DNA from: an uncultured Acidobacteriota bacterium
GTDB taxonomy: Bacteria; Acidobacteriota; JAQAZP01
NCBI GenBank assembly: GCA_963836075.1
Contig: CAWIIB010000009.1
Location: 1,504,001-1,568,000 of the forward strand
Direction: 5' to 3'
Length of the DNA: 64,000 nt
Positions within the stretch are counted from its first letter, which is position 1. The number at the start of each line of letters is the position of its first letter. Positions 12,278 to 64,000 of this stretch are shown here, in pieces. A model generated the notes under the pieces. That model saw nothing but the letters and a program-made list of their open reading frames with translations, made no database searches and was not told the DNA's origin. The position numbers were made by a program, and so were the translations under genes.

Positions 12278-12433
12278 TTATGGTGCCGCGGCGGTCACCG
12301 TGCAGGTGGCCTGGTCCGTGTCGCCGGACGAGGGGTATGGCGGCTGGTCATCGGGAACGACGATGGTGGCGGAAAAGGCGGCGACCGGGATGAGCAGTGC
12401 GACGATGGAGATAATCAGTACGTTCTGGCGCAT
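12278..12433 (-). pseudogene. 51-aa mini-gene: signal peptide fused to the last ~22 aa of the shared C-terminal domain (internal-deletion remnant)
   Basis: MRQNVLIISIVALLIPVAAFSATIVVPDDQPPYPSSGDTDQATCTVTAAAP with AAGAGG RBS. The tail matches PPYPPAGDTDTDSCTVTGVAP of the gene ending at 63361. Confidence 0.75.
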
Positions 12434-22055: not shown

Positions 22056-22141
22056 CGCTGCCCACTGCTCCCGTGCCGGTGATGTCGTTCATTGAAATGT
22101 ATCTTATGGACTGCGAAAACACAAGATCCGCGGAACGCCGC

Positions 22142-24317: not shown

Positions 24318-24583
24318 CGGTGATGCGAACCCCCGGTTGGCCGTACTCTATGGCCGGGCCGCGAGAGTGTCAAGGCTGGGACAGAGACGGCATCAGCCGG
24401 GAGAGGACATGCCGGCCCGGTGCCCGCAGGATCAGGGCGAGCGTCTCCGGAGTTTTTGTCGGATCAAGAATACCTGCCGGTTCTCCGATGAGAAATAGAG
24501 GGACGGATCCGTCAGCCCGCCCAGTTGGACAGTGGTGGGGTAGCAGGCGAAGCACCGTGCCCCCCGCCCTCATCCGGAGCGTC

Positions 24584-26470: not shown

Positions 26471-26516
26471 GTGTGTATACTTGTGACGGTAGACCGCCCG
26501 AGGAGCCGGCAACCCC

Positions 26517-30174: not shown

Positions 30175-30260
30175 TTTTCCCAGGACTCTATTACGACGTG
30201 GCGATGACGGCCCCTGGTGCAAAGGGCCGGCGGCTGGCTGAGTATAACACCGTGGTCGCT

Positions 30261-36307: not shown

Positions 36308-36374
36308 GAGTTTCCTTCCAGAGCACACTAAACCATAGTAATTCCTATAATGTATAGTATTTAAGTGGGGAACG

Positions 36375-37679: not shown

Positions 37680-37801
37680 CGAAACCTCCGTTCGTGCCCG
37701 ATGACATTGTCCATGAAAACCGGGTCTGCCGTGGAGGCTGCTGCCGCCATATGATACACTCAACCGGAACTCACCTTTTCAGGCCGATCCGGAGCACAGC
37801 A

Positions 37802-40120
37802 ATGACGGGGCAGAGCGGAATCAGGCATCGGTGGACTTTTTTCACGCCGGTTCTCGGTGCTTTTTTGATGCTGGCCCTGCTCCTCGCCGGCGGCTGCCGT
37901 CAGCCCTCCCTCGAGGACACGGTCCGGCATCTCGATTTGAGCGAACAGCTCAGCCGGGCCGAGGCCTGGGGGCCGGTTGAATTGCTGGACCTGGGGACCG
38001 GAGAGCACAAACTGAACCTGCTGGACGGGCTCTATTTCGCCGAGCGGGAGCCCGACGGCCGGACCTTTGCCTGGTCCTGGGGGGACGAGACCAGTTTTCT
38101 GCTCACCTGCCCGTCCCCCCGCCCGCGTACCCTGGCCATCTGCTGCCGGCGTCTGGGAGTGGAGCAACTGGACGACCTGCAGGTTGAGGTCTCGCTCAAC
38201 GGCAATTCCCTGGGCATTTTTACCCCGGGGACGGAATACGCGGACCACCGGTTGGAGGCGCCGGCCGGGGCCTGGCTGGATGGGGACAATATCCTGGTCC
38301 TGCACTATTCGGAGGACGTCTACCTGCCGGACGTGATTCCGGGGAACACCGACACCCGCCGGGTGGCGGTGCAGATGGATGCGATCCGGATCATTGCCGG
38401 CCTTAATGCGGGCGATGACGCGAAACCGGTGCTCGCCGGGGAGGGGCGGGTGGGCCTACCTGTCCCCGCGGATGTCTCCTGGCACTTTCAGGTTCCCCTG
38501 GGGGGGCTGCTGGTTTTTGGCAGTGAATCCGGAGACCCGGCTGAGCTGCGGGTGAGTGTGGCCACCGATGATGCTCCTCCAATTGAGATTTACCGCCGCC
38601 GCATTCCTGCCGGCGGGCAGAGTGATCAGGTCACCCTGGACCTGGCACACTGGTCAGGGCGCTTCGTTCGCCTCACCTGCTCGGTGGACCTTGCGGACGG
38701 GGCCGCCGCTGACACCGGACAGACCGTTCACCTGTTGCAGCCCGAGATCCGGGCCCCGGCGCCGCCGCCAGCTCCTCCGCTGCCGGCCGCCCCTGCCGGG
38801 CCGCCGCCGGACGTGCTGGTCTACGTGATGGACGCCCTGCGGGCGGGCCACCTCTCGGCCTACGGCCACCCCCGGCGCACCAGCCCGGTGCTCGACCGCC
38901 TCTCCCGCCAAGGCCAGCTCTTCAGCAGCGCGTTCTCCCAGGCGCCGAACACCGCTCCGTCGGTGAAATCGCTGTTCACCGGACGGTTCCTCCCCTTCAC
39001 CGGGTATGCCGTCCTTTCCCCGGACCACCCGACCATGGCCGAGGTCTTTTCCAGGTCCGGCTACTCCACCGGTCTTTTTTCCAATAACCCGTACATGGGG
39101 CCGGAGCTGGGGTTTTACCGCGGCTTCGATCACGTGGCCGAGGAGATCCTCTTCCGCCGCCAGCCGGTGAAGGACTTTGCCGGCCAGGCCACCGACGCCT
39201 TCATTAACTGGGCCGCGGAGCTCCCCGCCGGCCGGCCGTTCTTCGCTTACGTCCACACCATTCACCCGCACAACCCCTACCAGGCGCCGGCGCCCTTCGA
39301 CGGGGCTTTTCAACCCGCCGGGGAGGGGCCGGAGGAGGACCTCTCCACCGAGGCCCTCCTGGAATACGTCTACGGCCAGCGGGCGCTGGGGGACGGTACG
39401 CTGCAGCGGATGCGCGACCACTACGACGGCGACATCCTGTACAACGACCTGGAGCTGGGGCGTCTGCTGGCCTGGCTTGGCAACGCCGGCCGGGACCGGG
39501 AGACAGTGATCTTCATCACTGCCGACCACGGGGAGGAACTGGCCGACCACGGCGGGCTGCTTCACGGTTTCACGCTCTACGACGAGCAGATCCACGTGCC
39601 GCTGATCCTGGTCCCGCCGGCTGGAAGAGCGGCGGCCGGGGCGCCGGGCACGGTGATCACCCACAACGTGCGCCTGGTGGACCTGGCCCCCACGCTGTTC
39701 GAGATGAGCGGGGTCACCGAACCTCCGCCCACCGAGGGGGACCCGCTCACCGGATTCACCGGCCACCGCACGGTCTTTTCCTCGGCTTCTTCGGCCGCCG
39801 GGATCTACACCGTGCGCACCGGCCGCTGGAAATATGTCTTTGCCCCGCGAACCAGGCACCTCTGGGGCATGGGGGAGGGCCTGGGGCGGACACGGAAGCT
39901 GCACTACCTCTTTGACCTGCAGGCCGACCCGGGTGAGCGGCAGAACCTCGCCAGCCGGATGCAGGTGACCAGAAAGGCGCTCCAGGCCCGTCTGCTGGAG
40001 TGGATCCACCGCCAGTCCCTGCTGGACAATGCAGCGGGGGACGAGGAGCGGGGGCGGATGCCGGATTTTGACGAGGAGACCAGGCAACGGCTCCTCGATC
40101 TCGGATACATTGCTGAATAA
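37802..40120 (+). CDS. Sulfatase-like (alkaline phosphatase superfamily) lipoprotein
   Basis: Lipobox LAGGC; MDALRAGHL, QAPNTAPS..SLFTG, HPHNPY, YDGDI, TADHGE, DPGE..NLA. Confidence 0.88.
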   Translation: MTGQSGIRHRWTFFTPVLGAFLMLALLLAGGCRQPSLEDTVRHLDLSEQLSRAEAWGPVELLDLGTGEHKLNLLDGLYFAEREPDGRTFAWSWGDETSFLLTCPSPRPRTLAICCRRLGVEQLDDLQVEVSLNGNSLGIFTPGTEYADHRLEAPAGAWLDGDNILVLHYSEDVYLPDVIPGNTDTRRVAVQMDAIRIIAGLNAGDDAKPVLAGEGRVGLPVPADVSWHFQVPLGGLLVFGSESGDPAELRVSVATDDAPPIEIYRRRIPAGGQSDQVTLDLAHWSGRFVRLTCSVDLADGAAADTGQTVHLLQPEIRAPAPPPAPPLPAAPAGPPPDVLVYVMDALRAGHLSAYGHPRRTSPVLDRLSRQGQLFSSAFSQAPNTAPSVKSLFTGRFLPFTGYAVLSPDHPTMAEVFSRSGYSTGLFSNNPYMGPELGFYRGFDHVAEEILFRRQPVKDFAGQATDAFINWAAELPAGRPFFAYVHTIHPHNPYQAPAPFDGAFQPAGEGPEEDLSTEALLEYVYGQRALGDGTLQRMRDHYDGDILYNDLELGRLLAWLGNAGRDRETVIFITADHGEELADHGGLLHGFTLYDEQIHVPLILVPPAGRAAAGAPGTVITHNVRLVDLAPTLFEMSGVTEPPPTEGDPLTGFTGHRTVFSSASSAAGIYTVRTGRWKYVFAPRTRHLWGMGEGLGRTRKLHYLFDLQADPGERQNLASRMQVTRKALQARLLEWIHRQSLLDNAAGDEERGRMPDFDEETRQRLLDLGYIAE

Positions 40121-45667: not shown

Positions 45668-45736
45668 CCTCCGGTGTCCGGACCCTGGACCGGACTGTTT
45701 CCTGGAGGCCCATGGATCAGGAAGGCAGGCTGCTTC

Positions 45737-46810
45737 ATGAGTGCCAGTTCTTCGCATTTCGCTGATGCACCCGACATCATCCCCCCGCGTCTGAAAAAGG
45801 GGATGTCGATGACCGAGCTGGTTCAGTTCATGGGCCGGACCTGCTTCGAAGCGCGAAACGTGGCCGCCGGGGCCCGCCTGTTCGGCCGGATGATCGGCGA
45901 AGGGGATACCATCTGGCTCGGCATCGCCGGGGCCGGTATCGCCGGCGGGATGGGCGGGATGGTGATCGACCTGATCGAGGCCGGGTTCATCGACGTGATC
46001 TGTTCCACCGGCGCCCAGGTCTATCACGATCTGCACTTCGCCTTCGGCCTGCCGGTGAAGGCGATCCATCCCCAGGCGGACGACGATGAACTGCGGCGTT
46101 GCGGCGACGTACGGATCTACGACATCGGCATCCGGGACAAGGAGACACTGGACGCCCAGGACACCTTGATCCGCCGTTTCGTCAGGGAGTGCCACGCCGC
46201 CGAGTTCGCCGGCCGCGCAGTTTCCAGCTGGGAGTTCAACTTCGCCCTCGGCCGCTGGGTGCTGGCCAAAGCTCCGCACCCCGAGCGGAGCTTCACCGCC
46301 GCCGCGGCCCGGTGCGGCGTGCCGCTTTTCTGGGATTCGCTCTCCAACCACTCCATCGCCCTGAACCTGATCATCACCGATGCCGAGGGGCTGCCGGTGA
46401 CCCTCTCGGCTCAGAAGGATATTTTCGATTCCACCGCCATCGCCTTTTCAGCGAAGAACACCGGTTTTGTCGAGCTCGGCGGCGGCGGGCCGAAGAACTT
46501 CATCCAGCAGACCGGCCCCACGATCAGCCAGATTCTCAAGAAGCCATTTAGCGGCGCTGAGCGGGGCCTGCAGATCGGCACGGCCATGGAGAAGGAGGGG
46601 AGCCTCTCCGGTTGCACCTTCAGCGAGTCGGTCACCTGGGGCAAGTATCACTCGGCGGACGACCGGAAGCTGATCCAGATCTGGGGCGAGTACAGTGTGA
46701 TCTTTCCCCTGCTGGCCGCCCACGTCATCGACAACTGCCCGGCCCGGAAAGCAAAGGACGTGGTCTCCCGGATGCCGGGCTTTATCGCCGCGCTGGAGGA
46801 AGCCCGGTGA
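45737..46810 (+). CDS. Deoxyhypusine synthase-like protein (SpeY-type)
   Basis: STGA..YHD, RIYDI, LGGG.PKNF, GSLSG...SE..TWGK with the active-site Lys position retained. Confidence 0.88.
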   Translation: MSASSSHFADAPDIIPPRLKKGMSMTELVQFMGRTCFEARNVAAGARLFGRMIGEGDTIWLGIAGAGIAGGMGGMVIDLIEAGFIDVICSTGAQVYHDLHFAFGLPVKAIHPQADDDELRRCGDVRIYDIGIRDKETLDAQDTLIRRFVRECHAAEFAGRAVSSWEFNFALGRWVLAKAPHPERSFTAAAARCGVPLFWDSLSNHSIALNLIITDAEGLPVTLSAQKDIFDSTAIAFSAKNTGFVELGGGGPKNFIQQTGPTISQILKKPFSGAERGLQIGTAMEKEGSLSGCTFSESVTWGKYHSADDRKLIQIWGEYSVIFPLLAAHVIDNCPARKAKDVVSRMPGFIAALEEAR

Positions 46811-47742
46811 AACGGTACCACCTGCAGTTCCTGGAACCCGGAGAGGCGCTCACCGGTTTCGATGACGCAGCGGCGGCCATCCTGCCGGTGCCCTACGAAG
46901 GCGGAGTCTCCTGGGGACGGGGTGCGGCCGGCGGGCCCGACGCCCTGCTGAAGGCCTCGGCCCATGTCGAGGAATATGACGAGGTGCTGGATGTTGAACC
47001 CTGTCGGATGGGTATTGTCACCGTAACCCCGCCCGAGATTTCATCGGAGCCTGAGCGGGTGGAGCGGGCTGTCTTCGCCTGCACGGAAGAACTGATCGCC
47101 AACAGCAAGTTCCCGGTGATCATCGGCGGGGATCACTCGGTGAGCCTCGGCGGGTTCCGTGCTTTGCACGGGCGGTATGGCCGCCTCTCCGCCATCCAGC
47201 TGGATGCCCATGCCGACCTGCGGGAGGAATACGAAGGGAGCCGGCTGAGCCACGCCTGCATCATGGCCCGCATCCGGGAGTTCACCCCGGATGTGCTGCA
47301 GCTGGGTATTCGCAGCCTGTCGAAGCCCGAGGCGGAGCGGATTACCCGGGAAGAGCTGGCCGTCTTCACCATGGACCGGCTGCGCGGAAGCGAATTCGAC
47401 CTGGATGCCGAACTGGGTCGCCTGCCCGATCCGGTCTATGTCACGGTGGATCTGGACGCGTTCGACTGGAGTGTTATCCGCGGCACCGGCACCCCGGAGC
47501 CGGGTGGTTTTCTCTGGGCCGAGGGGCTGTCACTGCTGCGACGGATCTTCGAGACGAAGAATGTGGTGGGGTTTGACCTGGTGGAGCTGGCCGGCGGTGA
47601 AGGGGACCGCAATTCGGCCTTTGCCGCGGCCAAGCTTGCCTACCGGATGCTGGGGTTCAAGCTGGCCGCCGAGGTGTCCCGGGGCCATATGGATTGGCCC
47701 CGGGAACCGTGCGGCCCGCTCTCTTCCGTCACTAGTCCTTGA
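46807..47742 (+). CDS. speB: Agmatinase/ureohydrolase
   Basis: GTGA overlap; GGDHS, DAHADL, SHAC, DLDAFD, TGTPEPGG. Confidence 0.88.
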   Translation: MKRYHLQFLEPGEALTGFDDAAAAILPVPYEGGVSWGRGAAGGPDALLKASAHVEEYDEVLDVEPCRMGIVTVTPPEISSEPERVERAVFACTEELIANSKFPVIIGGDHSVSLGGFRALHGRYGRLSAIQLDAHADLREEYEGSRLSHACIMARIREFTPDVLQLGIRSLSKPEAERITREELAVFTMDRLRGSEFDLDAELGRLPDPVYVTVDLDAFDWSVIRGTGTPEPGGFLWAEGLSLLRRIFETKNVVGFDLVELAGGEGDRNSAFAAAKLAYRMLGFKLAAEVSRGHMDWPREPCGPLSSVTSP

Positions 47743-48518: not shown

Positions 48519-49856
48519 TTACCGGGGATAGAGCCGGCCAGCGGCCAGGTTGGCGCCGAAGGCGTCGTCGGTTGTGCCGACAAAGGCGTTGATCTGGCCC
48601 CGGTAATTGACGGTGCCTGTGGCCAGGCTGAACCAGCGGATCGCCCCGGGGTAGTTGGGGCTGGGCCCCGGAGCGGTGATCACCTCTTCGAAGCAGTCGT
48701 TGTCCACGTCAGCGGCGGCCACCTTGACGCCAAAGTGAGGCGTGGGGAAGGCCCGGAACGAGAGGCCGGGAAGGGGAATGCTGCCGCCGTCAACGTCGAA
48801 GATACGCACTTCGGCATTGCAGTTGAGCGCCGGCCCGGCGCCGGTGATAATCTCGTCGTACCCGTCACCGTCCACGTCGCCGGCGGCCACGTTGACCCCC
48901 CTGGTGTCGGCGCCATAGGCCATGAAATCGAGGCCGGGGACCGGTTTGATAGTGCCGCCCTCGAGGGTGAAGACTCGGACCCGGGCACAGAGCACGAGGC
49001 CCGGGCCGCAGCCGGTGATGATCTCGTCGCGGCCGTCACCGTCCAGGTCGCCGCAGGCCACGTTGACCCCGTATCCCTGATCCCCGGGGAAGGCCAGAAA
49101 ACCCAGGTCGTTGACCGAGTTGAAGCTTCCGCCGGCATAGCTGAAGATTTTCACCCCCGGTTTATACTGGTGGCCCGGGCCGCAGCCGGCGATGATCTCA
49201 TCCACCCCGTCGCCGTTCAGGTCACCGCAGCAGACCGACGCCCCGAAGTGGTTGTAGGAGAAGGCCAGGAAGGAACCGTTGTCCACCGGGCTCCCGTGGG
49301 CATGAAAGACCCTGATCTCGGGGCCGTGGCTGCCGGGTCCCGGGGAAACCACGATCTGGTCGGTGCCCGTGCCCAGTACGTCGCCACAGGCCAGCTGGAG
49401 CCCGCGTGTCTGATTGATGCCGCCAAAGGTCGTGAAGCTGCACATTTCGGGGGCCAGGTCCTCGAAGGCAAAGAGCCGGGCCGTGTCGGAGTTGAACAGG
49501 CCAGGGCCCGGCCCGGCGGCCAGTCGGGGCCGTTGCGGCGTGACCATCGGGCTGGTGTTGCCATATTGATCCACGGACTGGACGGCGAAGTAGTATGTGG
49601 TCTCCGCCTCACAGGGCACATCGATCACCACGCTCTCCCCGTCGTCAACAAAGTGGCGGTCCCCCTCGTCGAACGAGCCGGGAACGGTGGAGACGTAGAC
49701 GTAGTAGTCGAGGGAGCCAGGAGGAACAGTGGAAGGAGCGTTCCAGCTGACCAGGAACGAGGAGGCCTGGGCAGGTCCGGACATGAGAAGCACCGTTGAC
49801 ATGAGGACCAGTACGAGAACAAGCACCGTGAATCTGTGGGTCTGGAGGAACTGCAT
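48519..49856 (-). CDS. Secreted protein: FN3-like domain plus C-terminal GPGPG/FG-GAP propeller
   Basis: Signal peptide; VSW.AP..YYVY..TYYFAVQSVD.YGN.S (FN3); five GV.VA.GD.DGDG.DEII.G.GP repeats. Confidence 0.85.
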   Translation of the reverse strand: MQFLQTHRFTVLVLVLVLMSTVLLMSGPAQASSFLVSWNAPSTVPPGSLDYYVYVSTVPGSFDEGDRHFVDDGESVVIDVPCEAETTYYFAVQSVDQYGNTSPMVTPQRPRLAAGPGPGLFNSDTARLFAFEDLAPEMCSFTTFGGINQTRGLQLACGDVLGTGTDQIVVSPGPGSHGPEIRVFHAHGSPVDNGSFLAFSYNHFGASVCCGDLNGDGVDEIIAGCGPGHQYKPGVKIFSYAGGSFNSVNDLGFLAFPGDQGYGVNVACGDLDGDGRDEIITGCGPGLVLCARVRVFTLEGGTIKPVPGLDFMAYGADTRGVNVAAGDVDGDGYDEIITGAGPALNCNAEVRIFDVDGGSIPLPGLSFRAFPTPHFGVKVAAADVDNDCFEEVITAPGPSPNYPGAIRWFSLATGTVNYRGQINAFVGTTDDAFGANLAAGRLYPR

Positions 49857-51016: not shown

Positions 51017-53027
51017 CTACGGCTTGATGCCTGTCACCACACTGGCATCCAGATCGGTATCCCCCGACGGCGGATAGGGCGGTTGGTTAAAGGGCGCCGG
51101 AGTCACGTCCTCGGCCTCCAGGGAGAAGATGTTTTTCCCCACCAGCGACAGCGCCAGCGGGATATTCTGGTTCCAGCTGGTGGTGTAGAACGACCCGGCA
51201 GTGATGTTGGCGTAGCCCCGCCTCCAGTTGGTCACCGACGTGCCGTTGGCCAGGGCTATATTGATCCTCGCCGCCATCCGGCGGGTCAGTCCGGAATAGG
51301 TGTTGGCCAGCCTCACCGTCATCTGGGTGGTGAAGGGCAGGGTGCCGGAGGAGGGTGAGCAGGTCAGGCTGACGGAGATGGTTCCCGTCGTATTGAGCAG
51401 CACCGAGACAACGCCATTGGTAATATTCGCCGTGGCCAGGTCGAGGTGACCGTCCAGGTCCAGGTCGTCGATGAGCACCGATTCCGGTCCGCCTCCCACG
51501 CCGTAGCTCTCCATCACCGGGAACGTGCCGTCCCCCTCCCCGTAGAGCACGGTGACGCCGAGACCGCCCTGGCACGGAACGGCTGTAGTCGACCCGGGGC
51601 AGGAAAGTGCCGTCGCCCAGGCCGAAGAATACCGATACGCCGTGGATGTATCTGTTCACTACGGCCAGATCCGTGTTGCCGTCACCATCGAGATCTTCAA
51701 GGGCCGCGGCCATTCCCGTTGAACCGATGGTGTCGTCGATGGCGATAACCGGTTGATACGTTCCATCCCCGTTGCCCATCAGCAGGGAGAGATAGCCGAT
51801 ATACGAAGCGGCCACCACCAGGTCCGGGGCTCCGTCCCCATCGAGGTCGCCGCTGGTCACGAATCTGGCGTAGCTCCTGGCGCCGAAATCCGACGCTGCC
51901 GGGTACGAGCCGTCGCCGCGGTTCAGGAATACCGAGACATTGTGACTCAGGTTGTTCGCCGTGGTGATGTCGAGAGAGCCGTCATTGCCCAGGTCATCGA
52001 GCTCGAGGGTGATCGGGCTGTTCCCGGCCACATATCTAACCGGCGTCTGGAAGGTGCCGTCACTGTTGCCGAAGTGCAGCGAGATGCTGTCCCAGTCGTC
52101 ATTGGCGGCGGCCATGTCCGGGGTGCCGTCCTGGTCCAGATCACCGATGGCCACCGACATGATGCCGCCCTCGTTGGCGACGGTGTAAGGGGCCTGGAAG
52201 GTTCCGTCGCCGTTGCCTGGCAGCACGGCGATATCCCCGGTGGCGGCAATGGCCAGGGCCAGGTCCTGCAGGCCGTCGCCGGTCAGGTCACCGATGGCAA
52301 CGTCCTTGACCACCGTGAAACCGCCGAAGGTCACCGGCATCTGGAACGTGCCGTTGCCGTTGGCCATCATCACGGAGATGGTATTGGCCTGGGAGTTGCC
52401 CACCACCATGTCCGGGTGGCCGTCATCGTTCAAATCACCGATGGCCAGTGAATCCGGAAGATCATCCACCGGATAGTGCAGACCGCCCTGGAAGGTGCCG
52501 TCACCGTTGCCCAGTCGCACCGTGACCGTGTCGGCGTACGCGTTGACCACCACCAGGTCCAGGTTGCCGTCACTGTCCAGGTGATGGAGGGCGATGGCGG
52601 AGGGGTAGTCACCGGCGGCGATCTCCACCGGATCGGAGAAGGTTCCGTCGCCATTGCCCATGAAGACCCAGGCGCTGTCGCTGTCACCCACCGCTACGGC
52701 CAGGTCGGCATTGCCGTCGTTGTCCACGTCACCGATGGCTGCGCCCGTGGGGTAGTCCCCGATGCCGAGCTCCTGTCGCTGGCCGAACTCACCACTCCCG
52801 GTGCCTGTCAGGATGAAGAGGTGGTGATCGTTGTAATTGGCCGACACCGCTGCCAGGTCGGGAATCCCGTCGTTGTCCAGGTCGCCCACGGCGTGTGACT
52901 GGACGTAGTTGCCCACCCGGTAGTTTCGCCGGGATTCGAACGTTGCGGCGCTCACCGTTGCCGACAGGATCAGACCGCATGAAACAAGGGCGATGAGGAA
53001 TGGCAATGAACAGGCGCGGGCTTTCAT
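51017..53027 (-). pseudogene. FG-GAP repeat protein A with shared C-terminal domain; ~0.5 kb internal deletion causes a frameshift
   Basis: Nine repeats in ORF 53027-51087. At ~51584 the frame switches (...VDY|AVPCQ...) to the last repeat plus CTD (ORF ending 51017). 2011 bp versus ~2505 bp for paralogues. Confidence 0.75.
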
Positions 53028-55529
53028 GGTTTTATCCCGGTCAGCACACTGGCGTCCGCGCCGATGTCACCCGACGGCGGATAGGGCGGCTGGTTGAACG
53101 GCGCCGGAGTCACGTCTTCGGCTTCCAGTCTGAAGATGTTGTTCCCCACCATGGACAAGGCCAGCGGGATGTTCTGGTTCCAGTTGGTCGAATAGGACGA
53201 CCCGGCCGCGATGTTGGCATAGCCCCGCCGCCAGTTGGTTACTGCCGTGCCGTTGGCCAGGGTGATATTGATCTGGGCCGCCACCCGGCGAGTCTGGCCG
53301 GAGTAGCGGTTTTCCAAAGATACCGATATCTGGGTGGTGAAAGGCAGGGTGCCCGAGGAGGGCGAGCAGGTCAGGTTGGCGGATATCGTTCCGCTGCGGT
53401 TCAGCAGAACCGAAACGTCGTCACCGTGATAGTTCGGGGTCACCAGGTCTGTCTTGCCGTCTCCGTTCAGGTCGGCCACAGCCAGCGACCAGGGCCGTAC
53501 GCCGACTCCGAAATGCACGGCCGGATCGAAGGTGCCGTCCCCCACTCCCGGCAGTACCCGAGACGTTTGCACTGAACTGGTTGACCACCGCCAGGTCGGG
53601 CGAGCCGTCGTCGTCCAGGTCACTGATGGCCACCGCCTCAGGGTGTCTGCCGGTGGGGTAGTCGACGGCAGAGCCGAAGGTGCCGTCCCCGTTCCCCGGC
53701 AGCACCGACACATCATAGCTGTTCGCGTTGACCACGGCCAGGTCGGCCGTGCCGTTGCCATCCAGGTCGCCGGCGGCGATGAAGACCGGGTCCCAGGCCG
53801 CCAGCGGGAACTGGACAGCGGTGGCAAAGGTCCCGTCGCCGTTGCCGAGCAATACGGATATGTCGCCGGACTCATAGTTGGCCGCAGCCAGGTCCGGGAC
53901 CTCGTCGCCATTGTAGTCGTCCACCGCCACCGCCCGGGGATCGGTTCCGGCACCATACGCCACCATGGCGCCAAATGTGCCGTCACCGTTCCCGATGAAG
54001 ATGGAGAGTTCATTGCTTCCAGAGTTGGCCGTGATCAGGTCGGGAATACCGTCCTGGTCGAGATCATCGATGGTGACATGTTGTGGTCCACCGACCACCG
54101 CATAGTCAACGGCGGCCTGAAAGCTGCCGTTTCCCATGGACAGAAGTACCGAGATGGTCTGGTCCCCGCCATTGGCTGCCACCAGATCGTGATTTCCGTC
54201 ACCATCCAGGTCGCCGGCGGCAACCGAATTCGGATGTTCGCCAACATCGTGGAATGTGGCCGCCTGGAAGGTGCCGTCCCCGTTTCCCAGGAGAACGGAG
54301 AGGTTGTCGTCGAGGCTGTTGGCCACGGCCAGGTCCTGAATCCCGTCGCTGTTCAGGTCACCCACGGCCACCGAGAACGGTTCTTCACCCGTTTCATACC
54401 TTGACTCGACCGGAAAGGTGCCGTCCCCGCTGTTGAAGATCACTGATACAAGAAGCCCCCCCCAGTTGCCCACCGCCAGGTCGGGATCACCGTCCCCGTC
54501 CAAATCATCGATGGCCGCACACCTCGGCGAGGAGCCGGCCAGATACTCCGCGGCCGTGGCAAATGTGCCGTCCCCGTTCCCCGGGAAAACAACGACGCTT
54601 TCGCTGCCAGAGCTGGTCACCACCAGGTCTCTGGAATCGTCACCGTTCAGGTCAACGATAGCGATTGAAGTCGGGGCTGTCATGGATCCGAAGATAAACG
54701 CGGTCGCCCCGAAGGTGCCGTCACCGTTGCCCGGGAGGATGGACAGGGAATCGCCGAGGAAGTTCACCACGGCGAGGTCCAGATGGCCATCGCCATCGAG
54801 GTCGCTGGCGGCGGCATCGTATGGCCTGTCGCCCACCACATAGTCCACCATCGCTCCGAAGGTCCCGTCACCGATGCCGGGGAGGACCGAAACCTTGCCG
54901 TTGTCCTGATTCACCACCACCAGGTCGGGAACAGTATCACCATTCAGGTCCTCGGTGAGCACGTCCACGGGGGCAGGACCAACGGGAACGTTCATCGCCG
55001 TGGAGAAGGTGCCGTCCCCCACGCCCAGGAACACCGACAGATCGTCCGAATAGCTGTTCCCGGTAACCATGTCCGGATGACCGTCGCCGTTCAGGTCGTC
55101 CACGGCCATTGCCACGGGAACGGAGCCCGCGGCGTAGGTCACGGCATCGGCGAATGTCCCGTCCCCGTTGCCCAGGAACACCGAAGCGGTATCGGTCCAC
55201 CCGCTGGCCACAGCCAGGTCCGGCACCTTGTCGTGGTTCAGGTCGGCGATGACCACGTCTTCGGGAGCATTGCCGGCCGTGTAGTAGACGGCGGGCTGGA
55301 AATAGCCGCCGCCCGTTCCCAGCAGGACGGCGATACAGTCGTTTGGTGGAATCACCGTCACCAGATCGCGAATGCCGTCACCATCCAGGTCGCCCGCCAC
55401 CACCGCGCTGGCCCCGCCGTTCAGCAGGAAATCGAGCCGGGCCTCGAACAGTTGAGCGCTCACTGTCGCTGTAAACATGACGGAAAGCAGGAGCGAGACG
55501 ATGATGAACAGGACATTACGTTTTTTCAC
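53024..55529 (-). pseudogene. FG-GAP repeat protein B (14 repeats plus CTD); +1 frameshift, real or sequencing error
   Basis: GTG start with GAGGAG RBS. Extra G in TCGGGTA (plus strand ccc, 53557-53559); removing it restores NVSVLPGVGDGTF. Length 2506 = 3n+1. Confidence 0.75.
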
Positions 55530-55564
55530 GGCGACTCCTCGAATCAATGAATATCGATGTGGAC

Positions 55565-58078
55565 CTACGGTTTTATCCCGGTCAGCACATCGGCATTCAC
55601 GCTGGTGTCCCCCGACGCCGGGTAGGGCGGCTGGTTGAATGGCGCCGGGGTGACGTCTTCGGCTTCCAGGGTGAAGAAGTTGCCCCCCACCAGTGACAGG
55701 GACAGTGGGAGGTTCTGGTTCCAGCTGGTCGTGTAGGACGATCCCACTGCGATGTTGGCGTAGCCCCGCCGCCAGTTGGTGACCGAGGTGCCATTGGCCA
55801 GGGCGATGTTGATCTGTGCCGCCACCCGCCGGGTCTGCCCGCCATACATGTTTCGCAGCTCCACCGTCATCTGGGTGGTGAAGGGCAGGGTACCCGAGGA
55901 GGGCGAGCAGCTCAGGTCGGTAGAAATCGTGCCTCTGGTGTTAAAAAGAATGGAAACGTCGTGGCTGTCGAAGTTGCCCACGGCCAGGTCGGGTTTGCCG
56001 TCCTCGTTCCAGTCGGCGACGGCGATGGTTCTGGGGTCGGCGCCGGCGCCAAACGTGATGACATCCTTGAATGAGCCGTCCCCGATGCCCCGGTAGATGG
56101 AGACGAGGCTGTCGGTGCCGTTGGCCACTGCCAGGTCGGGGTGGCTGTCACCGTCCAGGTCTTCGATGAGAATCGAGCGGGGCTCCATGGCGGAATCGTA
56201 AGTCACCCCCGTGCCGAACGTGCCGTCCCCGTTGCCGATGAACACCGATACGGCCCATAACAGGCCAATTGCCACCTGGTTCGACACGGCCATGTCGGGA
56301 ACACCGTCATGGTTCAGGTCCTCGATGGCGATGCCATTGGGGACATTGAATGCGCCGTAGGTCGCCGGCCACTGAAAGGTGCCGTCCCCGTTGTTCAGCT
56401 GAACCGAAACATCCCACTGTCCCGAGGTTGCAACAATGTCCTGGTCGCCATCACCATCCAGGTCCTCAAGAGCGACGAATCTGGACCATGCTCCAAGGCC
56501 GATGGAAGTGGCCGGCTGGAAGGTGCCGTCCCCGTTGCCGCGGAAAAACACCAGCGTGTCAAGCTGGTATTTGACCACGACCAGGTCTGTGGCACCGTCA
56601 TTATCCATGTCGGCGAGGGCGAGACCCTGGGGATAGGTTTCGATGGGGTAGTCCACCGCGGCCATATACGTGCCGTCGCCGTTGTTCAGCAGAATTGAAA
56701 CGTCAAAGCTGTATTCATTACCCATGGCCAGGTCCGGGGCTCCATCCCCGTTTAAATCGGCGGCGGCGAGATATGCCGGCCCATCGCCCACCGCATAGGT
56801 CACCCCTGGTTGGAAAGTGCCGTCTCCGTTGCCCCGCAGGGTCAGGATCTGATCATCCTGGTAGATTCCCAGTGCCAGGTCCTGGTGTCCGTCCCCGTCC
56901 AGGTCAAGGGCGGTTACGGACGTTGGAAAATCTCCCACTGCAATGTTCAGGGGAGACTGAAATGAGCCATTCCCCTTGCCCAGCAGTACCGAGGTTGTAT
57001 CAGACCACCGGTTGGCCGTGGCCAGGTCCAGGTTGCCGTCTCCGTTAAAATCATCGATTCCGATGGAACGGGGCTCATTGCCAACACTGAAATTTTCGGC
57101 GGCCTGGAATGTTCCGTCACCGTTGTTCAGCAACACCGAGATGTCATCACTGCCGACATTGACCGAGATCAGGTCCGGGTGACCGTTGTTGTCCAGGTCT
57201 CCAGTGGCCATCTCGATGGGATAATCGCCGGCCGCGAAGGCGGTCGGGCTACCGAAGGTGCCGTCCCCCATACCCCAGAGAACTGAGACGGTGGCGACAG
57301 TGACGTTAGCCACGGTAAGGTCCAGCACCCCGTCATCGTCCAGGTCGTCGAGAGCCACGCTGATCGGGTGTTCGCCGGCGGCGAACGCGGTCCCGGCTCC
57401 GAAGGTGCCGTCTCCAGCACCGAGAAAAACCGAGACGGTGGTGCCGCCATCGTAGCCAATGACCAGGTCGATGTTTCCGTCACCGTCCAGGTCACCGGCG
57501 GCCAGGGACCAGGGATCGTTGCCCACGGCGTAACTCACTCCCGGTTGAAAGGTGCAGTCACCATTGCCCTGTAGAATGTAAAACTCTTCCGGAGATTCAT
57601 CGATGGAGGCCAGGTCGGGGATCCCGTCGTTGTCGAAGTCGCTGATAACGGTATAGAGAGGCTGGCTACTCACGGTCGCTTCGATGGGGGCCTGGAATGT
57701 CCCGTCCCCGTTGCCCGGGAAGACCGCGATATCGTGGTCATAGGAGCCAGTCACCACCAGGTCGAGAATGCCGTCGTTGTCCAGATCCCCCAGGGTACTG
57801 GACCAGGGGCCGTTCCCCACCGGGAACAGGGTTGAATTGCCGAAGGTGCCGTTACCGTTGCCCAGCAGGATGGCAACTGCCCCGTCAGCCTCCGCCGTCC
57901 CGACCAGGTCCGGACGGCCGTCCCCGTTCAGATCACCGGTGACGACGGATGCCGGGTTCCAGCCGATGGGATAGTCGACTCGTGTGTCGAATATCGTCGC
58001 TTGCGCGGTCGTTACCGGAAGGAGAAGGCAAGCGGCAGCTAAGATCGTGATCATCGCACTTTTGAATGTTTTACTCAT
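55565..58078 (-). CDS. FG-GAP repeat protein C (14 repeats plus CTD), intact
   Basis: Signal peptide, 14 DLxxDGxxDL repeats, CTD ending TGIKP. Confidence 0.9.
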   Translation of the reverse strand: MSKTFKSAMITILAAACLLLPVTTAQATIFDTRVDYPIGWNPASVVTGDLNGDGRPDLVGTAEADGAVAILLGNGNGTFGNSTLFPVGNGPWSSTLGDLDNDGILDLVVTGSYDHDIAVFPGNGDGTFQAPIEATVSSQPLYTVISDFDNDGIPDLASIDESPEEFYILQGNGDCTFQPGVSYAVGNDPWSLAAGDLDGDGNIDLVIGYDGGTTVSVFLGAGDGTFGAGTAFAAGEHPISVALDDLDDDGVLDLTVANVTVATVSVLWGMGDGTFGSPTAFAAGDYPIEMATGDLDNNGHPDLISVNVGSDDISVLLNNGDGTFQAAENFSVGNEPRSIGIDDFNGDGNLDLATANRWSDTTSVLLGKGNGSFQSPLNIAVGDFPTSVTALDLDGDGHQDLALGIYQDDQILTLRGNGDGTFQPGVTYAVGDGPAYLAAADLNGDGAPDLAMGNEYSFDVSILLNNGDGTYMAAVDYPIETYPQGLALADMDNDGATDLVVVKYQLDTLVFFRGNGDGTFQPATSIGLGAWSRFVALEDLDGDGDQDIVATSGQWDVSVQLNNGDGTFQWPATYGAFNVPNGIAIEDLNHDGVPDMAVSNQVAIGLLWAVSVFIGNGDGTFGTGVTYDSAMEPRSILIEDLDGDSHPDLAVANGTDSLVSIYRGIGDGSFKDVITFGAGADPRTIAVADWNEDGKPDLAVGNFDSHDVSILFNTRGTISTDLSCSPSSGTLPFTTQMTVELRNMYGGQTRRVAAQINIALANGTSVTNWRRGYANIAVGSSYTTSWNQNLPLSLSLVGGNFFTLEAEDVTPAPFNQPPYPASGDTSVNADVLTGIKP

Positions 58079-58135
58079 CGTTGCTCCAGTGATGATTCCT
58101 GATGATGGCAAATTACGTATTTCAACAAACATACC

Positions 58136-60638
58136 TTATGGCTTTATGCCAGTCACTATTCCGGCATCAATGTCGGTGTCGCCCGATGGCGGGTAGGGCG
58201 GCTGGTTGAAGGGCGCCGGGGTGACGTCCTCGGCCTCCAGGGTAAAGAAGTTGCCCCCCACCAGTGACAGGGACAATGGGAGGTTCTGGTTCCAGCTGGT
58301 GGTGTAGTGCGACCCTGCCCCGATGTTGGCGTAACCCCGTCGCCAGTTGGTCACCGAAGTGCCGTTGGCCAGGGTGATGTTGATAAGTGCCGCCATCCGG
58401 CGGGTCTGCCCGGGGTAGCGGTTCTCCAGCTTCACCGTCATCTGGGTGGTGAAGGGCAGGGTGCCGGATGCAGGCGAGCAGGTCAGGTCGGCGGATACCG
58501 TGCCGCTGCGGTTGAGCAGAACCGAAAGATCGTTGCTGAAATAATTCGCCGTCACCAGGTCAGCTTTCCCGTCATTGTTCAGGTCGGTGATGTCCACCGA
58601 GAGCGGTTGTCTGCCCACTCCGAAAGCGATGGTCGGATTGAACGATCCGTCCCCGTTGCCCGACAGCACCGAGACATCGAAACTCCACTCGTTGGCCACG
58701 ACGACGTCCGGGATGCTGTCATTGTCGACGTCATCGATGGCCACCGAGAAAGGCTGGCAGCCGGCTCCGGTACTCGATGGCCGCCCCGAAGGTGCCGTCA
58801 CCGATCCCCGGCATCACCGAAACAGATTGCCGGTGCTGGTTTGCCACCACCAGTTCCGGGGCGCCGTCGCCGTCCAGGTCGCCGGCCGCGATTGAACGGG
58901 GATTCCACACGTAGAGCAGGTACACCACCGGGGTCATGAACGTGCCGTCGCCATTGCCCAGCAGAATGGAGACTTCCCCGCTGCCATAGTGTGAGGTCGC
59001 CAGGTCCGGGGCACCGTCGCCGTCCAGATCTTCGATGACAAAGGTACTCGGAGCTTCGCTGAAGCTGTAGCTCACTGCCGCCCCGAAGGTGCCGTCCCCG
59101 TTGCCGAGAAATACCGTGAGCTGTCCAGGGTAGTTGCTCACCACCAGGTCCGGGGCGCCGTCCGCGTCCAGGTCTTCAGCTTTGATCGAGGAAGGGCTGT
59201 CCAGGGATCCTAAGGTCTCAGCCGGCTGGAAAGACCCGTCACCATTGGCCAGCAGGATTGAAATATTGTCGGAATAGTAATTTGACACGGCCAGATCGGG
59301 ATAGGAGTCCCCATCCAGGTCTTCGATGGCTACGGATCTGGGGTGATCGCCCACAGGGTAGTCCACGGCAGATTGAAATGTGCCGTTGCCGTTGCCCAGG
59401 CGCACCGAGACGGTATCGACATCGGTGTTGACCACGGCCAGGTCCGGGAAACCGTCACCATCCAGGTCAGCCGGTTCCATTGAAAAGTCGCCGGGAGCGA
59501 TACCGACCCGTTCGTCCACCGGGAAGGTGCCGTCTCCGTTCCCCAGGTGCACGGAGACCATATCACTGTTGTAATTGGTCACGGCCAGATCCGCCGTTCC
59601 GTTTCCGTCAAGGTCGCTGAAGGTGATTGACGATGGGAAATGCCCCACCAGGTACTCTCCAGCCGCCACGAATGTGCCGTCGCCGTTTCCTGCAAGCAGC
59701 GTGACCAAGTCTGCGCCGCCACCGAGGATGACGGCCAGATCCTGGTCGCCGTCCTGATCCAGGTCTTTGGTGGCCACGGCCGAGGGCGTGTCGCCAACCG
59801 CGATGTGCAAAGCGGCCCCGAAGGTGCCGTCGCCGATTCCCGGCAAAACGGAAACGTTGTCACCATTCTCGTTGGCGGTCACCAGGTCAGGAATACCGTC
59901 GCCATTCAGATCGCTGACGGCAACCTCCCGCGGTCTCTCATCCGTTGCGTACTCCACCGCGGCCACGAAGGTGCCGTCGCCGTTGCCGATGAGGATCGAG
60001 ACGCTGTCGCTGAACCAGTTGGCCACGGCCAGGTCGGGTGCCCCGTCGTCATCCAGATCATGGATGACTACGTTCTCGGGATATGATCCAACCGCATAGA
60101 TGACTGCTGTCCCGAAGGTGCCGTCACCGTTGCCCGGATGAACCGAAATAGCGTGATCACCGGAGTTCACCACCACCAGATCCGGGATATCGTCGGCATC
60201 CAGGTCATCAATGGCGATTGAAGCGGGATGCTCGCCAACCGCGAAGTTTGTTGACGCCTGAAAGGTCCCGTCGCCGTTGCCCGGCAGGACCGAGATGGTA
60301 TCGTCATAGCCATTGGCCACCACCAGGTCGGGAATACCATCTCCGTCCAGGTCGTTGATCACCACGGTATTCGGACCATCACCGGTGCTGTAGTGCACTG
60401 CCTCCTTAAAGGTGCAGTCACCGATGTTGAGCAGCACGGAAACATCGTCGGTGCCCAGATTCGCGACGACCATGTCAGAATGGCCATCACCATTGAGGTC
60501 GCCAGTATCCACTGACAGCGGGTCGTCACCCACCATGAAGCCCAGACGTGCTTCGAAAAGCCGGGCACCCGTGGCCGGACTGGCAGCGCAAAGGAACAGC
60601 AGCAGGATGAAGAACAGACAGGTATGGCGAATGCTCAC
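58136..60638 (-). pseudogene. FG-GAP repeat protein D (14 repeats plus CTD); +1 frameshift, real or sequencing error
   Basis: GTG start with GAGGAG RBS. Extra C in TACCGGA (~58769-58770); removing it restores EYGAGCQPFSVAID. Length 2503 = 3n+1. Confidence 0.75.
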
Positions 60639-60772
60639 GGCGACTCCTCGGGGAAACGAACTGTATAAATGATTGAATACGTGGCAGATCCTTCACGCAA
60701 ACCGATGCGAGGAAACCGGATGGCGGATAGGTTTTGTCCGTCACCATCCGGGCACAACTTTTATCTTATTGA

Positions 60773-60802
60773 AATATAGGGCTGTTATCCGTGATAAGTC
60801 AA
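60773..60802 (-). promoter_or_regulatory. Putative sigma70 promoter for FG-GAP genes D-C-B-A
   Basis: Minus strand TTGACT-N18-TATATT in an AT-rich intergenic gap. Confidence 0.5.
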
Positions 60803-60818
60803 GGATTTGCCTGATGTT

Positions 60819-63320
60819 TCACGGCGCCACCCCGGTTGCCGTGCAGCTGTCCGTGTCCGTGTCCCCCGCCGGCGGGTAGGGCGGCAGGTTGTAGGGGGGT
60901 GGCGTGACGTCGGCCACGGTCAGGTCGAACAGATTCACTCCCGCGAGGCTGGGCAGGTCGGGGATTGTCTGTGACCACTGTTTGATGTAGACCTCCCCCG
61001 CCATGACGTTCTGCCAGCCCCGGCGCCAGTTGGAATAGAACTGACCGCCGGCCGTGGTGACATCGATGATGTACTGCAGGCGTCGGGTCTGGTCCTGACA
61101 GAGGTTGGTCATGGTGGCCTGGAACAGCGAGGCGAAGGGCAGGGTGCCTGAGGAGGGCGTGCAGGTCAGGTCCGCCCTGATTGTGGGCCAATAACCCACT
61201 CTTGCGTTGAGTAACACCGAAAAGTTTCCCGTATGTCGATTCACCACCGCGAGGTCGGGGCTGTCGTTGCCGTCCATATCTTCCAAGGCCACAAATCGCG
61301 GTTCGGTGCCGGCAAGGTAATTGGCCTCCAAAGTGAATGTGCCATCGCCGAATCCGGTGAGGACCGAGACAGACCCGCTCATTAAGTTTGCCACAACCAG
61401 ATCCAGTCGTCGGTCACCATCCAGATCTTCTATTGCGATCCAACGCGGATCTTTTCCGACCGAGTAGTGTGCCGCAGGAAGGAACGTTCCGTCCCCGTAG
61501 GCCAGCAACACGGATATAGAGTCTCCGCCATTATTCGCCGTGACCAGGTCGCTGTGGCCGTCGTCATTCAGATCATCGATGGCGATCGATAGGGGACTTT
61601 CGGCGACGCCGTATGACACGGCCGTCTGGAATGAACCATCCCCAACGCCCAGCAAGACGGAAACGTCGTCACTCTCCCAGTTCGCCGTCACCAGATCGGG
61701 GATGCCATTACCGTCCAGGTCATCAACTGCAATCGAATAGGGATTCATACCGGCATCAAAGTACACCGGCGATTGGAAAGAACCGTCCCCGTTGGCCAGC
61801 AGGACGGAGGCGGCCCCGGTACTGTTTGACGTGACCAGGTCGGGTTTGCTGTCATTATTCAGGTCGTTGATGACGATGGTTCGGTTTCTCCCCGGAACCT
61901 CATAGTCCACAGTTGCTGCGAAGGTGCCGTCCCCGTTGCCCAGAAGGACTGAGACATCATAACTGCCAACGGCAAGGTCAGGGATACCGTCTGCATTCAG
62001 GTCCCCGATGGCCACCGAATACGGATATAGCCCGGCACTAAATGTCATTCTCGTTCCGAAGGTGCCCTCTCCCTGGCCAAGACGCACCGAGACGATGGAG
62101 CCATAAATCAAGGTCTCGACGATGTCTGGAATCTCATCACCGTCAAGATCACCTATGGCAACCGATGTGGGTGTGTATCCTTCGTATTCAACACCGTAAT
62201 GAGTGGCGGAAGGGAAAATGGGGTCGTCGCGGATGGTCAGGATTGTGAAAGAGTCGATGACCCCATTGGTCACCACCAGGTCCGGAATACCATTATTGTC
62301 CATGTCCCCGATGGCCATCGCCAGGGGTGAGTATCCCGCAGGATATCGGCCACCGCCGGAGAGTGTGCCGCTCGCATTACCCAGGCCCACCAGGACATCA
62401 TATGAATCCTCGCTGGCTACCGCCACGTCAAGTTTGCCGTCCTCATTCAAATCGCCGATGGCCACCGAGGTCGGCTCATCTCCTGCCAGGTGAAAATCGT
62501 CGCGGGGAAAGCCGCCGGTCCCATCACCGTAGTGTATCGACAACTCGTCACTGAATGAGTTGGTCACGGCGAGGTCCGGGTAACCATCGCGGTCCACATC
62601 GCCGATGGCTATATCGCTGGGCCTGCGGCCCGCGACAACGGCAACCGGGGGCAGGAAACTGCCGTCTCCACTGCCAATGAACACCCAGACATTATTTCCG
62701 CTGAAAATGTTGTTCGCCACGGCAAGGTCCGGCGTGGTATCGCCATTGAGATCACCGATGGCAACCGCTACAGGATAGTCTGCTACCGGATAGTGAACGG
62801 CCGTTGGAAACGTTCCATCACCGGTACCCAAAAGAACGGAGATATCATCACTGTCGATATTCGTTGTCACCAGGTCCAGATTACCATCACCGTCCAGATC
62901 GTCGATGGCCACCGACCAGGGACCAGTGCCCGTGGAAAATGATCCGCCCACCTGAAATGAGCCGTCCCCAACTCCCAACAGGACAGAGACATGGTCGCTG
63001 TCCTTGATTGCAAAAGCCAGATCCGGAACGGTGTCATTGTCCAGATCACCGATGGCCACTCCAGACGGCATACCACCAACCCCGTAATTCACAGCGGCCA
63101 TGAATGTCCCGTCACCATTGCCCAGCACAACGGAGAGATCAGAACTCTGGTGATTTGCGGTGACAACATCAAGATTGCCATCATCATTCAGATCTTCAAC
63201 GGCCACCGAATATGGCTGCTCGCCTACATCAAAGAACATGCTGGAATTGAATATCTGCCCCTTGGCTGCCGGTGCTTGAGCGAGAAGCACGGCGAGGGCC
63301 AGGATGCCGAATTTGCTCAT
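60819..63320 (-). CDS. FG-GAP repeat protein E (14 repeats plus CTD subtype 2), intact
   Basis: GAGGGG RBS, signal peptide, 14 repeats, CTD ending DSCTATGVAP. Confidence 0.9.
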   Translation of the reverse strand: MSKFGILALAVLLAQAPAAKGQIFNSSMFFDVGEQPYSVAVEDLNDDGNLDVVTANHQSSDLSVVLGNGDGTFMAAVNYGVGGMPSGVAIGDLDNDTVPDLAFAIKDSDHVSVLLGVGDGSFQVGGSFSTGTGPWSVAIDDLDGDGNLDLVTTNIDSDDISVLLGTGDGTFPTAVHYPVADYPVAVAIGDLNGDTTPDLAVANNIFSGNNVWVFIGSGDGSFLPPVAVVAGRRPSDIAIGDVDRDGYPDLAVTNSFSDELSIHYGDGTGGFPRDDFHLAGDEPTSVAIGDLNEDGKLDVAVASEDSYDVLVGLGNASGTLSGGGRYPAGYSPLAMAIGDMDNNGIPDLVVTNGVIDSFTILTIRDDPIFPSATHYGVEYEGYTPTSVAIGDLDGDEIPDIVETLIYGSIVSVRLGQGEGTFGTRMTFSAGLYPYSVAIGDLNADGIPDLAVGSYDVSVLLGNGDGTFAATVDYEVPGRNRTIVINDLNNDSKPDLVTSNSTGAASVLLANGDGSFQSPVYFDAGMNPYSIAVDDLDGNGIPDLVTANWESDDVSVLLGVGDGSFQTAVSYGVAESPLSIAIDDLNDDGHSDLVTANNGGDSISVLLAYGDGTFLPAAHYSVGKDPRWIAIEDLDGDRRLDLVVANLMSGSVSVLTGFGDGTFTLEANYLAGTEPRFVALEDMDGNDSPDLAVVNRHTGNFSVLLNARVGYWPTIRADLTCTPSSGTLPFASLFQATMTNLCQDQTRRLQYIIDVTTAGGQFYSNWRRGWQNVMAGEVYIKQWSQTIPDLPSLAGVNLFDLTVADVTPPPYNLPPYPPAGDTDTDSCTATGVAP

Positions 63321-63360
63321 TTCATCCCCTCTCTTCCGCACATATCATCCAACATCACTG

Positions 63361-64000
63361 TTACGGCGCCACCCCGGTTACCGTGCAGCTGTCGGTGTCC
63401 GTGTCGCCTGCCGGCGGGTAGGGCGGCTGGTTGTAGGGCGGCGGCGTGACGTCGGCCACGGTCATTCGGAACAGGTTGGTCCCCTCCAGGGTGGGCCAGG
63501 CAGGAATGTTCTGTGACCACTGTTTGGTATAGACCTCTCCGGCCTGGACGTTCTGCCAACCACGGCGCCAGTTTGAGTAATACTGCCCTCCGGCCAGGGT
63601 GACATCGATGGTGTATTGGAAGCGCCGAATCTGACCGTCGTAACGATTGGTCATGGTCGCCTGGAAGAGGGAGGCGAAGGGCAGGGTGCCTGACGATGGA
63701 GTACCGGTCAGTTCGGCCGAGATCGTGCTCATTTCGGGATCACTGGTGTTCATCAGTGTTGTGATCATCGGGGTTCGACTAATAACCACGAGGTCCGGGT
63801 CACTGTCATTGTCCAGGTCACCGATCGCTACAAACTGACTTGCCTGGCCGGCACCGTAGCTCACCGACGGCTGAAAGGTCCCGTCCCCGTTACCCTGCAG
63901 CATTTCAAGATAGCCATACGTTAGCACCACGGCCAGGTCCGGAATGGTATCTCCGTCCAGATCACTGATGGCGATGCAATGAGGAAAGAAACTTGTGCTG
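63361..64000 (-). CDS. FG-GAP repeat protein F (5'-truncated by window edge), CTD subtype 2
   Basis: Last repeats (GDLDNDSDPDL) plus CTD ending DSCTVTGVAP. Confidence 0.85.
   Translation of the reverse strand, partial: STSFFPHCIAISDLDGDTIPDLAVVLTYGYLEMLQGNGDGTFQPSVSYGAGQASQFVAIGDLDNDSDPDLVVISRTPMITTLMNTSDPEMSTISAELTGTPSSGTLPFASLFQATMTNRYDGQIRRFQYTIDVTLAGGQYYSNWRRGWQNVQAGEVYTKQWSQNIPAWPTLEGTNLFRMTVADVTPPPYNQPPYPPAGDTDTDSCTVTGVAP

Follow-up and report, generated by a model that had tools for sequence, protein, structure and literature searches.

The 64,000-nt stretch of uncultured Acidobacteriota DNA analysed here (JAQAZP01; contig CAWIIB010000009.1, positions 1,504,001 to 1,568,000; hereafter, the window) carries six closely packed minus-strand genes, A–F, at 51017–64000, each of which encodes an ORF ending in one domain of ~122–127 aa, referred to below as the C-terminal domain (CTD). 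Our analysis revealed that the CTD is a real, abundant and lineage-restricted family without description in curated libraries, found at the extreme C-terminus of putatively exported proteins with unrelated passengers. This architecture suggests that the CTD is probably some form of sorting or anchoring module. More specifically, and more tentatively, we favour a lineage-specific surface-targeting module that acts by non-covalent docking.

The six CTDs are located at 51020–51400 (A), 53027–53407 (B), 55568–55948 (C), 58139–58519 (D), 60822–61211 (E) and 63364–63753 (F), with stop codons directly after them, and a six-frame search of the window using a profile built from the six copies returned 219–242 bits for each. 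Beyond these, the only window match to the profile was a 26-residue tail at 12281–12358. The six sequences are readily alignable (45 invariant columns), and the alignment bears out the original prediction made from this stretch with regard to the sites of the domains, their near-invariant motifs and the presence of two subtypes, one ending in TGIKP (A–D) and the other in SCTxTGVAP (E–F). The bodies of the two intact genes, C and E, comprise 13–14 FG-GAP_3 stretches by Pfam, and the last ~125 residues of both return no family in Pfam or NCBIfam. Within subtype A–D, the CTDs share 79–83 % identity compared with 39–48 % for the bodies, and the CTDs of E and F are 79.5 % identical (the body of F lies outside the window). 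Greater conservation of the CTD than of its passenger had been predicted; this holds within the subtypes but not between them, where CTD identity (44–52 %) overlaps that of the bodies (38–46 %). Different codons are used at 23–37 % of identical residues in the A–D CTDs and at 42–51 % in the bodies; the combination of 79–83 % identity with 23–37 % differing codons indicates that the CTDs are old enough to show purifying selection.

The family extends far beyond the window. Searching 1.84 billion protein cluster representatives with the six-copy profile yielded 494 matches at E≤1e-3, 448 at E≤1e-10 and 331 at E≤1e-30, in keeping with the many hits that had been anticipated. Position was analysed in the best 150 of the 494 representatives, with a CTD regarded as terminal if its last copy ended within 8 residues of the C-terminus. 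The last copy is terminal in 146/150; 131/146 of these stop precisely at the final profile position, and Pro is the last residue in 132/146. The non-terminal cases are P0021, P0057, P0059 and P0122; three proteins (P0057, P0122 and P0021) have a genuine internal copy with another domain after it, so that the CTD is only rarely internal. Nine of the 150 representatives possess two copies, and the invariant loop and cysteines described below are retained in the inner copies of these tandems and in the three internal copies alike. In the two-copy proteins P0003–P0009 and P0012, the last copy is more divergent, with N-W-R changed to N-Y-R or lost and an extra Cys beside the conserved Trp, and these proteins would seem to form a distinct tandem subfamily.

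A second, word-indexed search of longer proteins returned 521 matches; of the 120 listed, all but two either lack a source name or are called 'hypothetical protein', and the two exceptions are named after their passengers. Seven CTD proteins encoded on one contig have arylsulfotransferase, FGE-sulfatase, beta-helix, SBBP, LVIVD, FG-GAP_2 and C25+MAM passengers, and we infer that they share the genome of the window. A CTD is encoded by 146 stretches of the GTDB species set. The best 80 of these (74 loci), which formed the basis of our locus analysis, come from only two metagenome-assembled genomes (MAGs), JAQAZP01 (Acidobacteriota bacterium) and CBESOE01. They contain 87 distinct CTD ORFs, at least 52 in one MAG and at least 35 in the other, and 86/87 end at a stop codon with the CTD terminal, again as predicted. 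A tblastn search against 72,556 plasmid records gave no match.

The passengers are diverse. Pfam families were sought in 85 of the best 150 representatives and were detected in 50/85, with FG-GAP accounting for only 12/85. The remaining passengers include PQQ propellers, beta-helix, F5/8 type C, PPC, fn3, GH5, LTD, BNR, S8, C25, C1, M28, PA14, PKD and LamG families. Similarly, 35 of the 61 complete CTD ORFs of the two MAGs have a Pfam family at E≤1e-6, 10 of them FG-GAP; the others include peptidases (three C25 with propeptide, two M14, M23, M28, S8 and trypsin-like) as well as CotH+LTD, arylsulfotransferase, PQQ, beta-helix, sortilin/BNR and LamG proteins. A signal-peptide-like start (a basic and hydrophobic N-terminus, scored by a crude rule of our own) was found in 60/62 CTD ORFs with a complete 5′ end. 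The expectation of unrelated passengers on signal-peptide proteins, rather than confinement to FG-GAP paralogues, is thus borne out. These data also speak to the simplest alternative, namely that the CTD is a local peculiarity, the domain of one FG-GAP paralogue family kept alike by recent duplication or gene conversion. The six genes are indeed tandem paralogues with fewer synonymous differences in their CTDs than in their bodies; however, the 494 representatives with mostly non-FG-GAP passengers, the two MAGs with dozens of CTD copies and the seven further CTD proteins with other passengers on one contig refute this explanation, leaving it with practically no probability.

No curated family describes the CTD. 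Two CTDs searched against Pfam at E≤1 gave no family and against NCBIfam no relevant one, and when 24 CTDs were searched against Pfam and NCBIfam at E≤10, there were no matches to sorting-domain, dockerin, PPC or carbohydrate-binding module (CBM) models, consistent with the predicted lack of similarity to known sorting signals. CARDB and Big families of Pfam were likewise absent from these 24 CTDs at E≤10, except for single matches possibly located in the extra N-terminal sequence of short proteins. A PDB sequence search with the 24-member profile produced two chance-level matches only (E about 1.4). Literature listings and the openings of abstracts contained no account of the CTD or of a sorting signal in this group, nor any paper on the GC-type dockerin. 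As had been noted from the sequence, the CTDs end in ...TG-x-x-P and lack a transmembrane helix, any other hydrophobic stretch or a basic tail, and we therefore rejected membership of the PEP-CTERM, LPXTG, GlyGly-CTERM and MYXO-CTERM signals, given the missing hydrophobic helix or basic tail.

Three further families were rejected. Dockerins (PF00404/NF041540) were discarded as no model matches and the CTD is modelled as an all-beta sandwich. PPC (PF04151) is, like the CTD, a small beta-sandwich located towards the C-terminal end of secreted peptidases; however, no PPC match was obtained and, in P0015 (PPC at 240–309, CTD at 325–446) and P0205, PPC precedes the CTD within one protein, indicating that the two are separate modules. 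Membership of a CBM or CARDB family was also dismissed since no such Pfam family was detected across the 24 CTDs. CARDB and bacterial Ig-like domains share an Ig-like beta-sandwich fold with the CTD, and a protein atlas gave a language-model resemblance to CARDB, which is a weak lead (score 0.91; family carried by 22 % of cluster members). In contrast to the single terminal CTD, those domains occur as internal repeats.

A close architectural parallel is with the type IX secretion system (T9SS), the cargo of which carries sorting domains recognized by curated hidden Markov models (Por_Secre_tail and CHU_C in Pfam; type A and type B models in NCBIfam). As in T9SS cargo, the CTD is mostly found once per protein, at the very C-terminal end of signal-peptide-like proteins with unrelated passengers, albeit with two copies in 9/150 representatives; like type A and type B domains, it appears as a terminal beta-sandwich on Sec-exported, unrelated hydrolases and adhesins, dozens per genome. 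It might therefore be a tag that serves export and attachment in the manner of the T9SS, whether as a very divergent T9SS CTD or as the signal read by some hitherto unknown translocon of the outer membrane. The folded domain would be recognized at the outer membrane, carried across and then cleaved off, and the cargo would be joined to a lipid or glycan of the surface. The fixed C-terminus fits such a tag, given that 131/146 copies stop at the profile end and 132/146 finish in Pro. So does the presence of C25, M14 and S8 peptidases among the cargo, all of which are exported by the T9SS in Bacteroidota. Terminal domains that are confined to particular lineages and shared by many secreted enzymes have, in other cases, turned out to be T9SS signals. 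Nevertheless, no sorting-domain model matched any of the 24 CTDs even at E≤10. T9SS CTDs form Ig-like beta-sandwiches of ~70–100 aa; the CTD is modelled as a beta-sandwich too, but a longer one, with 8 strands over ~120 aa, and RbmA is its best structural match among those listed. It is also much more conserved than T9SS CTDs, which usually show far less conservation, and differs from them in its Cys pair, its invariant Pro-rich loop and its tandem and internal copies. Moreover, the closest cargo homologues, with Planctomycetota or Phycisphaerae source names, bear dockerins rather than T9SS CTDs, and no T9SS component is encoded among the 164 ORFs flanking the CTD genes. On balance, we consider a T9SS-kind tag a credible but unlikely explanation.

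The genomic context was surveyed through these 164 flanking ORFs in the 74 loci, using NCBIfam on 117 ORFs at E≤1e-15 and on 47 ORFs at E≤1e-25. No T9SS or sortase component scored above cut-off in this set, and no T9SS model reached its cut-off in the window. Matches to PorU and GldK were rejected, since they reach 60–80 bits against cut-offs of 350–420 and lie within C25 and FGE-sulfatase domains. The CTD genes themselves are dispersed between housekeeping genes.

A confident AlphaFold2 model of the CTD built from the 24-sequence alignment (predicted local distance difference test, pLDDT, 93.5; predicted template modelling score, pTM, 0.82) is an 8-strand beta-sandwich in which the most conserved segment, residues 99–114 (D-V-T-P-x-P-Y-N-Q-P-P-Y-P-x-x-G-D), forms the loop before the last strand. 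Among the 49 matches listed by Foldseek against the PDB, there were only generic Ig, fibronectin type III (FnIII) and macroglobulin-like folds (best E 1e-4, template modelling (TM) score 0.44–0.69), the best TM score, 0.69, being to the biofilm matrix protein RbmA; no T9SS CTD was among them. Across 232 CTD sequences, eleven positions are 100 % conserved, and Cys14 and Cys120 tend to occur together (both are present in 190 sequences, Cys14 alone in 11, Cys120 alone in 7 and neither one in 24; Fisher p = 3e-18). This co-occurrence fits a disulfide and an extracytoplasmic life. Within the window, both conserved cysteines are present in gene E only.

Given this fold, the CTD could instead be a substrate-binding or purely structural Ig-like module, similar to a CBM or FnIII spacer, that aids polymer or matrix binding and has no sorting role. 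The matches to generic Ig, FnIII and macroglobulin folds, to glycosidase accessory beta-sandwiches and to RbmA would agree with such a function, and so would the weak atlas lead to CARDB, the conserved Trp, Tyr and Arg residues (suited to glycan binding) and the existence of tandem and internal copies. Yet the cargo has no obvious common substrate, as it spans peptidases of six families, PQQ, arylsulfotransferase, CotH kinase-like and FG-GAP proteins, and the CTD is almost never found away from the extreme C-terminus. Additionally, no CBM or Ig family model matches it, at odds with its being a known carbohydrate-binding or Ig family, and the same slot in homologous cargo holds anchors and not CBMs. 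We thus regard a substrate-binding or structural role as improbable.

The terminal slot was also compared in homologous cargo. When the 120 proteins most similar to one C25 cargo protein were inspected, nine had a CTD at their end. Among the first 60 of the 120, most have dockerin-like repeats at their end, and P0282 alone has a hydrophobic, basic tail; precomputed Pfam annotation places Dockerin_1 in 9/120, and several of the homologues have Planctomycetota or Phycisphaerae source names. In eight homologues scanned with NCBIfam, a choice-of-anchor J match lies directly before the terminal module in 5/8, among them P0282, at 33.2 bits (cut-off 30), and the CTD-bearing P0235, which at 22.6 bits stays below cut-off; the GC-type dockerin model matches 4/8, of which only P0284 is above cut-off (32.2 bits against 29). 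NCBIfam analysis of 61 CTD proteins returned five choice-of-anchor J, two 'myxosortase-dependent M36' and one 'rhombosortase-dependent M36' matches. Collectively, these matches indicate that the same cargo families bear different known anchors elsewhere, of the dockerin or transmembrane type, at the position where this lineage has the CTD.

The CTD therefore shares with the GC-type dockerin (NF041540) an identical terminal slot after choice-of-anchor J in orthologous C25 peptidases. Both end exactly at the C-terminus and both are non-membrane modules, the CTD, like the dockerin, presumably docking onto a partner. Unlike a dockerin, it is a beta-sandwich rather than a pair of duplicated Ca-binding repeats, dockerin models do not match it, and we know of no cohesin-like partner for it. 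We propose that the cargo would be exported by Sec via its N-terminal signal peptide and that the CTD would fold into its 8-strand beta-sandwich in the oxidising periplasm or at the exterior, where, in most members, a Cys14–Cys120 disulfide may staple the first strand to the last. The CTD could then dock non-covalently on a conserved envelope partner, either a protein or a surface glycan, through an invariant face comprising the D-V-T-P-x-P-Y/F-N-Q-P-P-Y-P-x-x-G-D loop along with two motifs, W-R-x-G and W-x-Q. Dozens of a genome's hydrolases and adhesins, among them the six FG-GAP proteins of the window, would thereby stay attached to the cell surface, with the CTD working like a dockerin or SLH-type anchor placed where T9SS cargo has its CTD. 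Three features lead us to prefer docking to a T9SS-like tag or a substrate-binding module: the extreme degree to which the CTD is conserved, its occurrence in tandem and at internal positions, and the orthologues that bear dockerins.

Several observations weigh against docking, or against the evidence assembled for it. An export signal recognized at the C-terminus would account at least equally well for the almost invariably terminal position, the fixed end and the final Pro, and this fixed end means that an export tag is still a live alternative. No recurrent partner, receptor, processing-enzyme or translocon candidate emerged from the 164 flanking ORFs in the 74 loci. The signal-peptide calls come from a crude heuristic, and only 103/150 representatives pass a similar test; many of the 150 are fragments (20/150 start without M). 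The choice-of-anchor J and dockerin matches mostly lie under the curated cut-offs. Within the window, the CTDs display fewer synonymous differences (0.23–0.37) than the bodies (0.42–0.51), and part of their similarity may therefore stem from gene conversion; furthermore, 3/5 complete local genes (A, B and D) are frame-broken as sequenced. A further, rather doubtful reading is that the CTD is the address tag of an unrecognised surface sorting or attachment system restricted to this uncultured lineage and unrelated to the T9SS; an outer-membrane or surface partner belonging to that system would read the invariant Pro-rich loop and the fixed ...TG-x-x-P end. Were this true, the partner gene set could be traced by matching the phylogenetic profiles of genes with that of the CTD.

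C-terminal sorting and anchoring domains define the bacterial surface proteome and, to our knowledge, each has so far pointed to dedicated machinery (sortases, exosortases, the T9SS or cohesins). As neither Pfam nor NCBIfam has a model for the CTD, at least 35–52 secreted proteins per genome in this uncultured lineage are at present annotated without a localisation signal. A CTD profile would flag a predicted surface and secreted set containing many peptidases, glycosidases and adhesin-like propellers, and would offer a handle for tracing the partner or machinery via co-occurrence. Being strongly conserved, with a Cys pair and an invariant loop, the CTD is also tractable for structural and binding studies.

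With respect to the individual genes of the array, signal peptide, body and CTD are in one frame as sequenced only in gene C (55565..58132, 855 aa, with 14 FG-GAP_3 stretches) and gene E (60819..63341, 840 aa, with FG-GAP repeats), both on the minus strand like the rest. Genes A (51017..53027), B (53024..55547) and D (58136..60638) each encode a signal peptide, FG-GAP repeats and a CTD whose frame is intact, but the reading frame has to change by +1 on the way from the FG-GAP body into the CTD. In gene A, the frame changes near 51560–51600 and part of one repeat, roughly 20 residues, is missing. In gene B, an extra base in a short G run shifts the frame at ~53500–53540, about 100–130 nt upstream of the CTD, and in gene D a one-base frame change is located near 58770–58790; in both B and D, the break has the appearance of a short run that gained a single base. 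These breaks represent either assembly errors or recent pseudogenisation. Programmed frameshifting was rejected because the three breaks lie at different, non-homologous sites, with an apparent extra base in B and D and repeat loss in A. Only the 3′ part of gene F (63361..64000), consisting of its last FG-GAP repeats and CTD, lies within the window. Accordingly, the six signal-peptide FG-GAP proteins of the original prediction are supported in part: signal-peptide-like N-termini were seen for the five genes A–E, with A, B and D frame-broken, and the start of F falls outside the window.

The further claim that every secreted FG-GAP protein carries the CTD proved wrong, as two window FG-GAP proteins (2669–5095, plus strand; 48519–49856, minus strand) have signal-peptide-like N-termini and lack the domain. 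Both belong to a second secreted FG-GAP-like family, which has repeats of the form GPGPG...VR.F...YG.NV..GD.DGDG.DEI, no CTD and often a terminal ...AAG-x-F, and which is also encoded at other CTD loci (e.g. L002:3372-5870, L024:3249-6146 and L048:3060-5795). Members of this family are the commonest neighbours of CTD genes, making up 17/164 flanking ORFs and the largest neighbour cluster.

The 26-residue tail match belongs to a 51-aa mini-ORF (12281..12433, minus strand) in which a signal-peptide-like N-terminus is joined to the last ~26 CTD residues, corresponding to the end of the Pro-rich loop and the last strand. It is positioned between a response regulator (12575–13204, minus strand) and a convergent B12-binding radical SAM gene (10629–12242, plus strand). 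A search for relatives of 28–90 aa found none besides itself; hence, we treat the mini-ORF as probably a remnant and not as evidence that the tail alone can serve as a signal.

Elsewhere in the window, the region 13761–30222 contains envelope and glycan genes, including a PMT_2 glycosyltransferase, DUF4301, three GT2/GT4 glycosyltransferases and two sensor kinases, and this cluster might produce a polymer of the cell surface. It also encodes two large polytopic membrane proteins (26517–28091, plus strand; 28084–30222, minus strand) that have no family match. A VWA-domain protein at 33219–34967 (plus strand) matches NCBIfam TIGR03436 (acidobact_VWFA; 181.8 bits, cut-off 81.25), consistent with the Acidobacteriota label of one related MAG, although such a match does not establish taxonomy. 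The protein encoded at 35057–36607 (minus strand) has several CxxCH motifs and is probably a multihaem cytochrome; beside it are a radical SAM/SPASM maturase (36375–37763, minus strand) and a large sulfatase (37565–40120, plus strand), which could be a sulfatase and its anaerobic maturase. Finally, a deoxyhypusine-synthase-like gene followed by an arginase/agmatinase-family gene at 45674–47742 (plus strand) likely constitutes a polyamine (homospermidine-type) pair.

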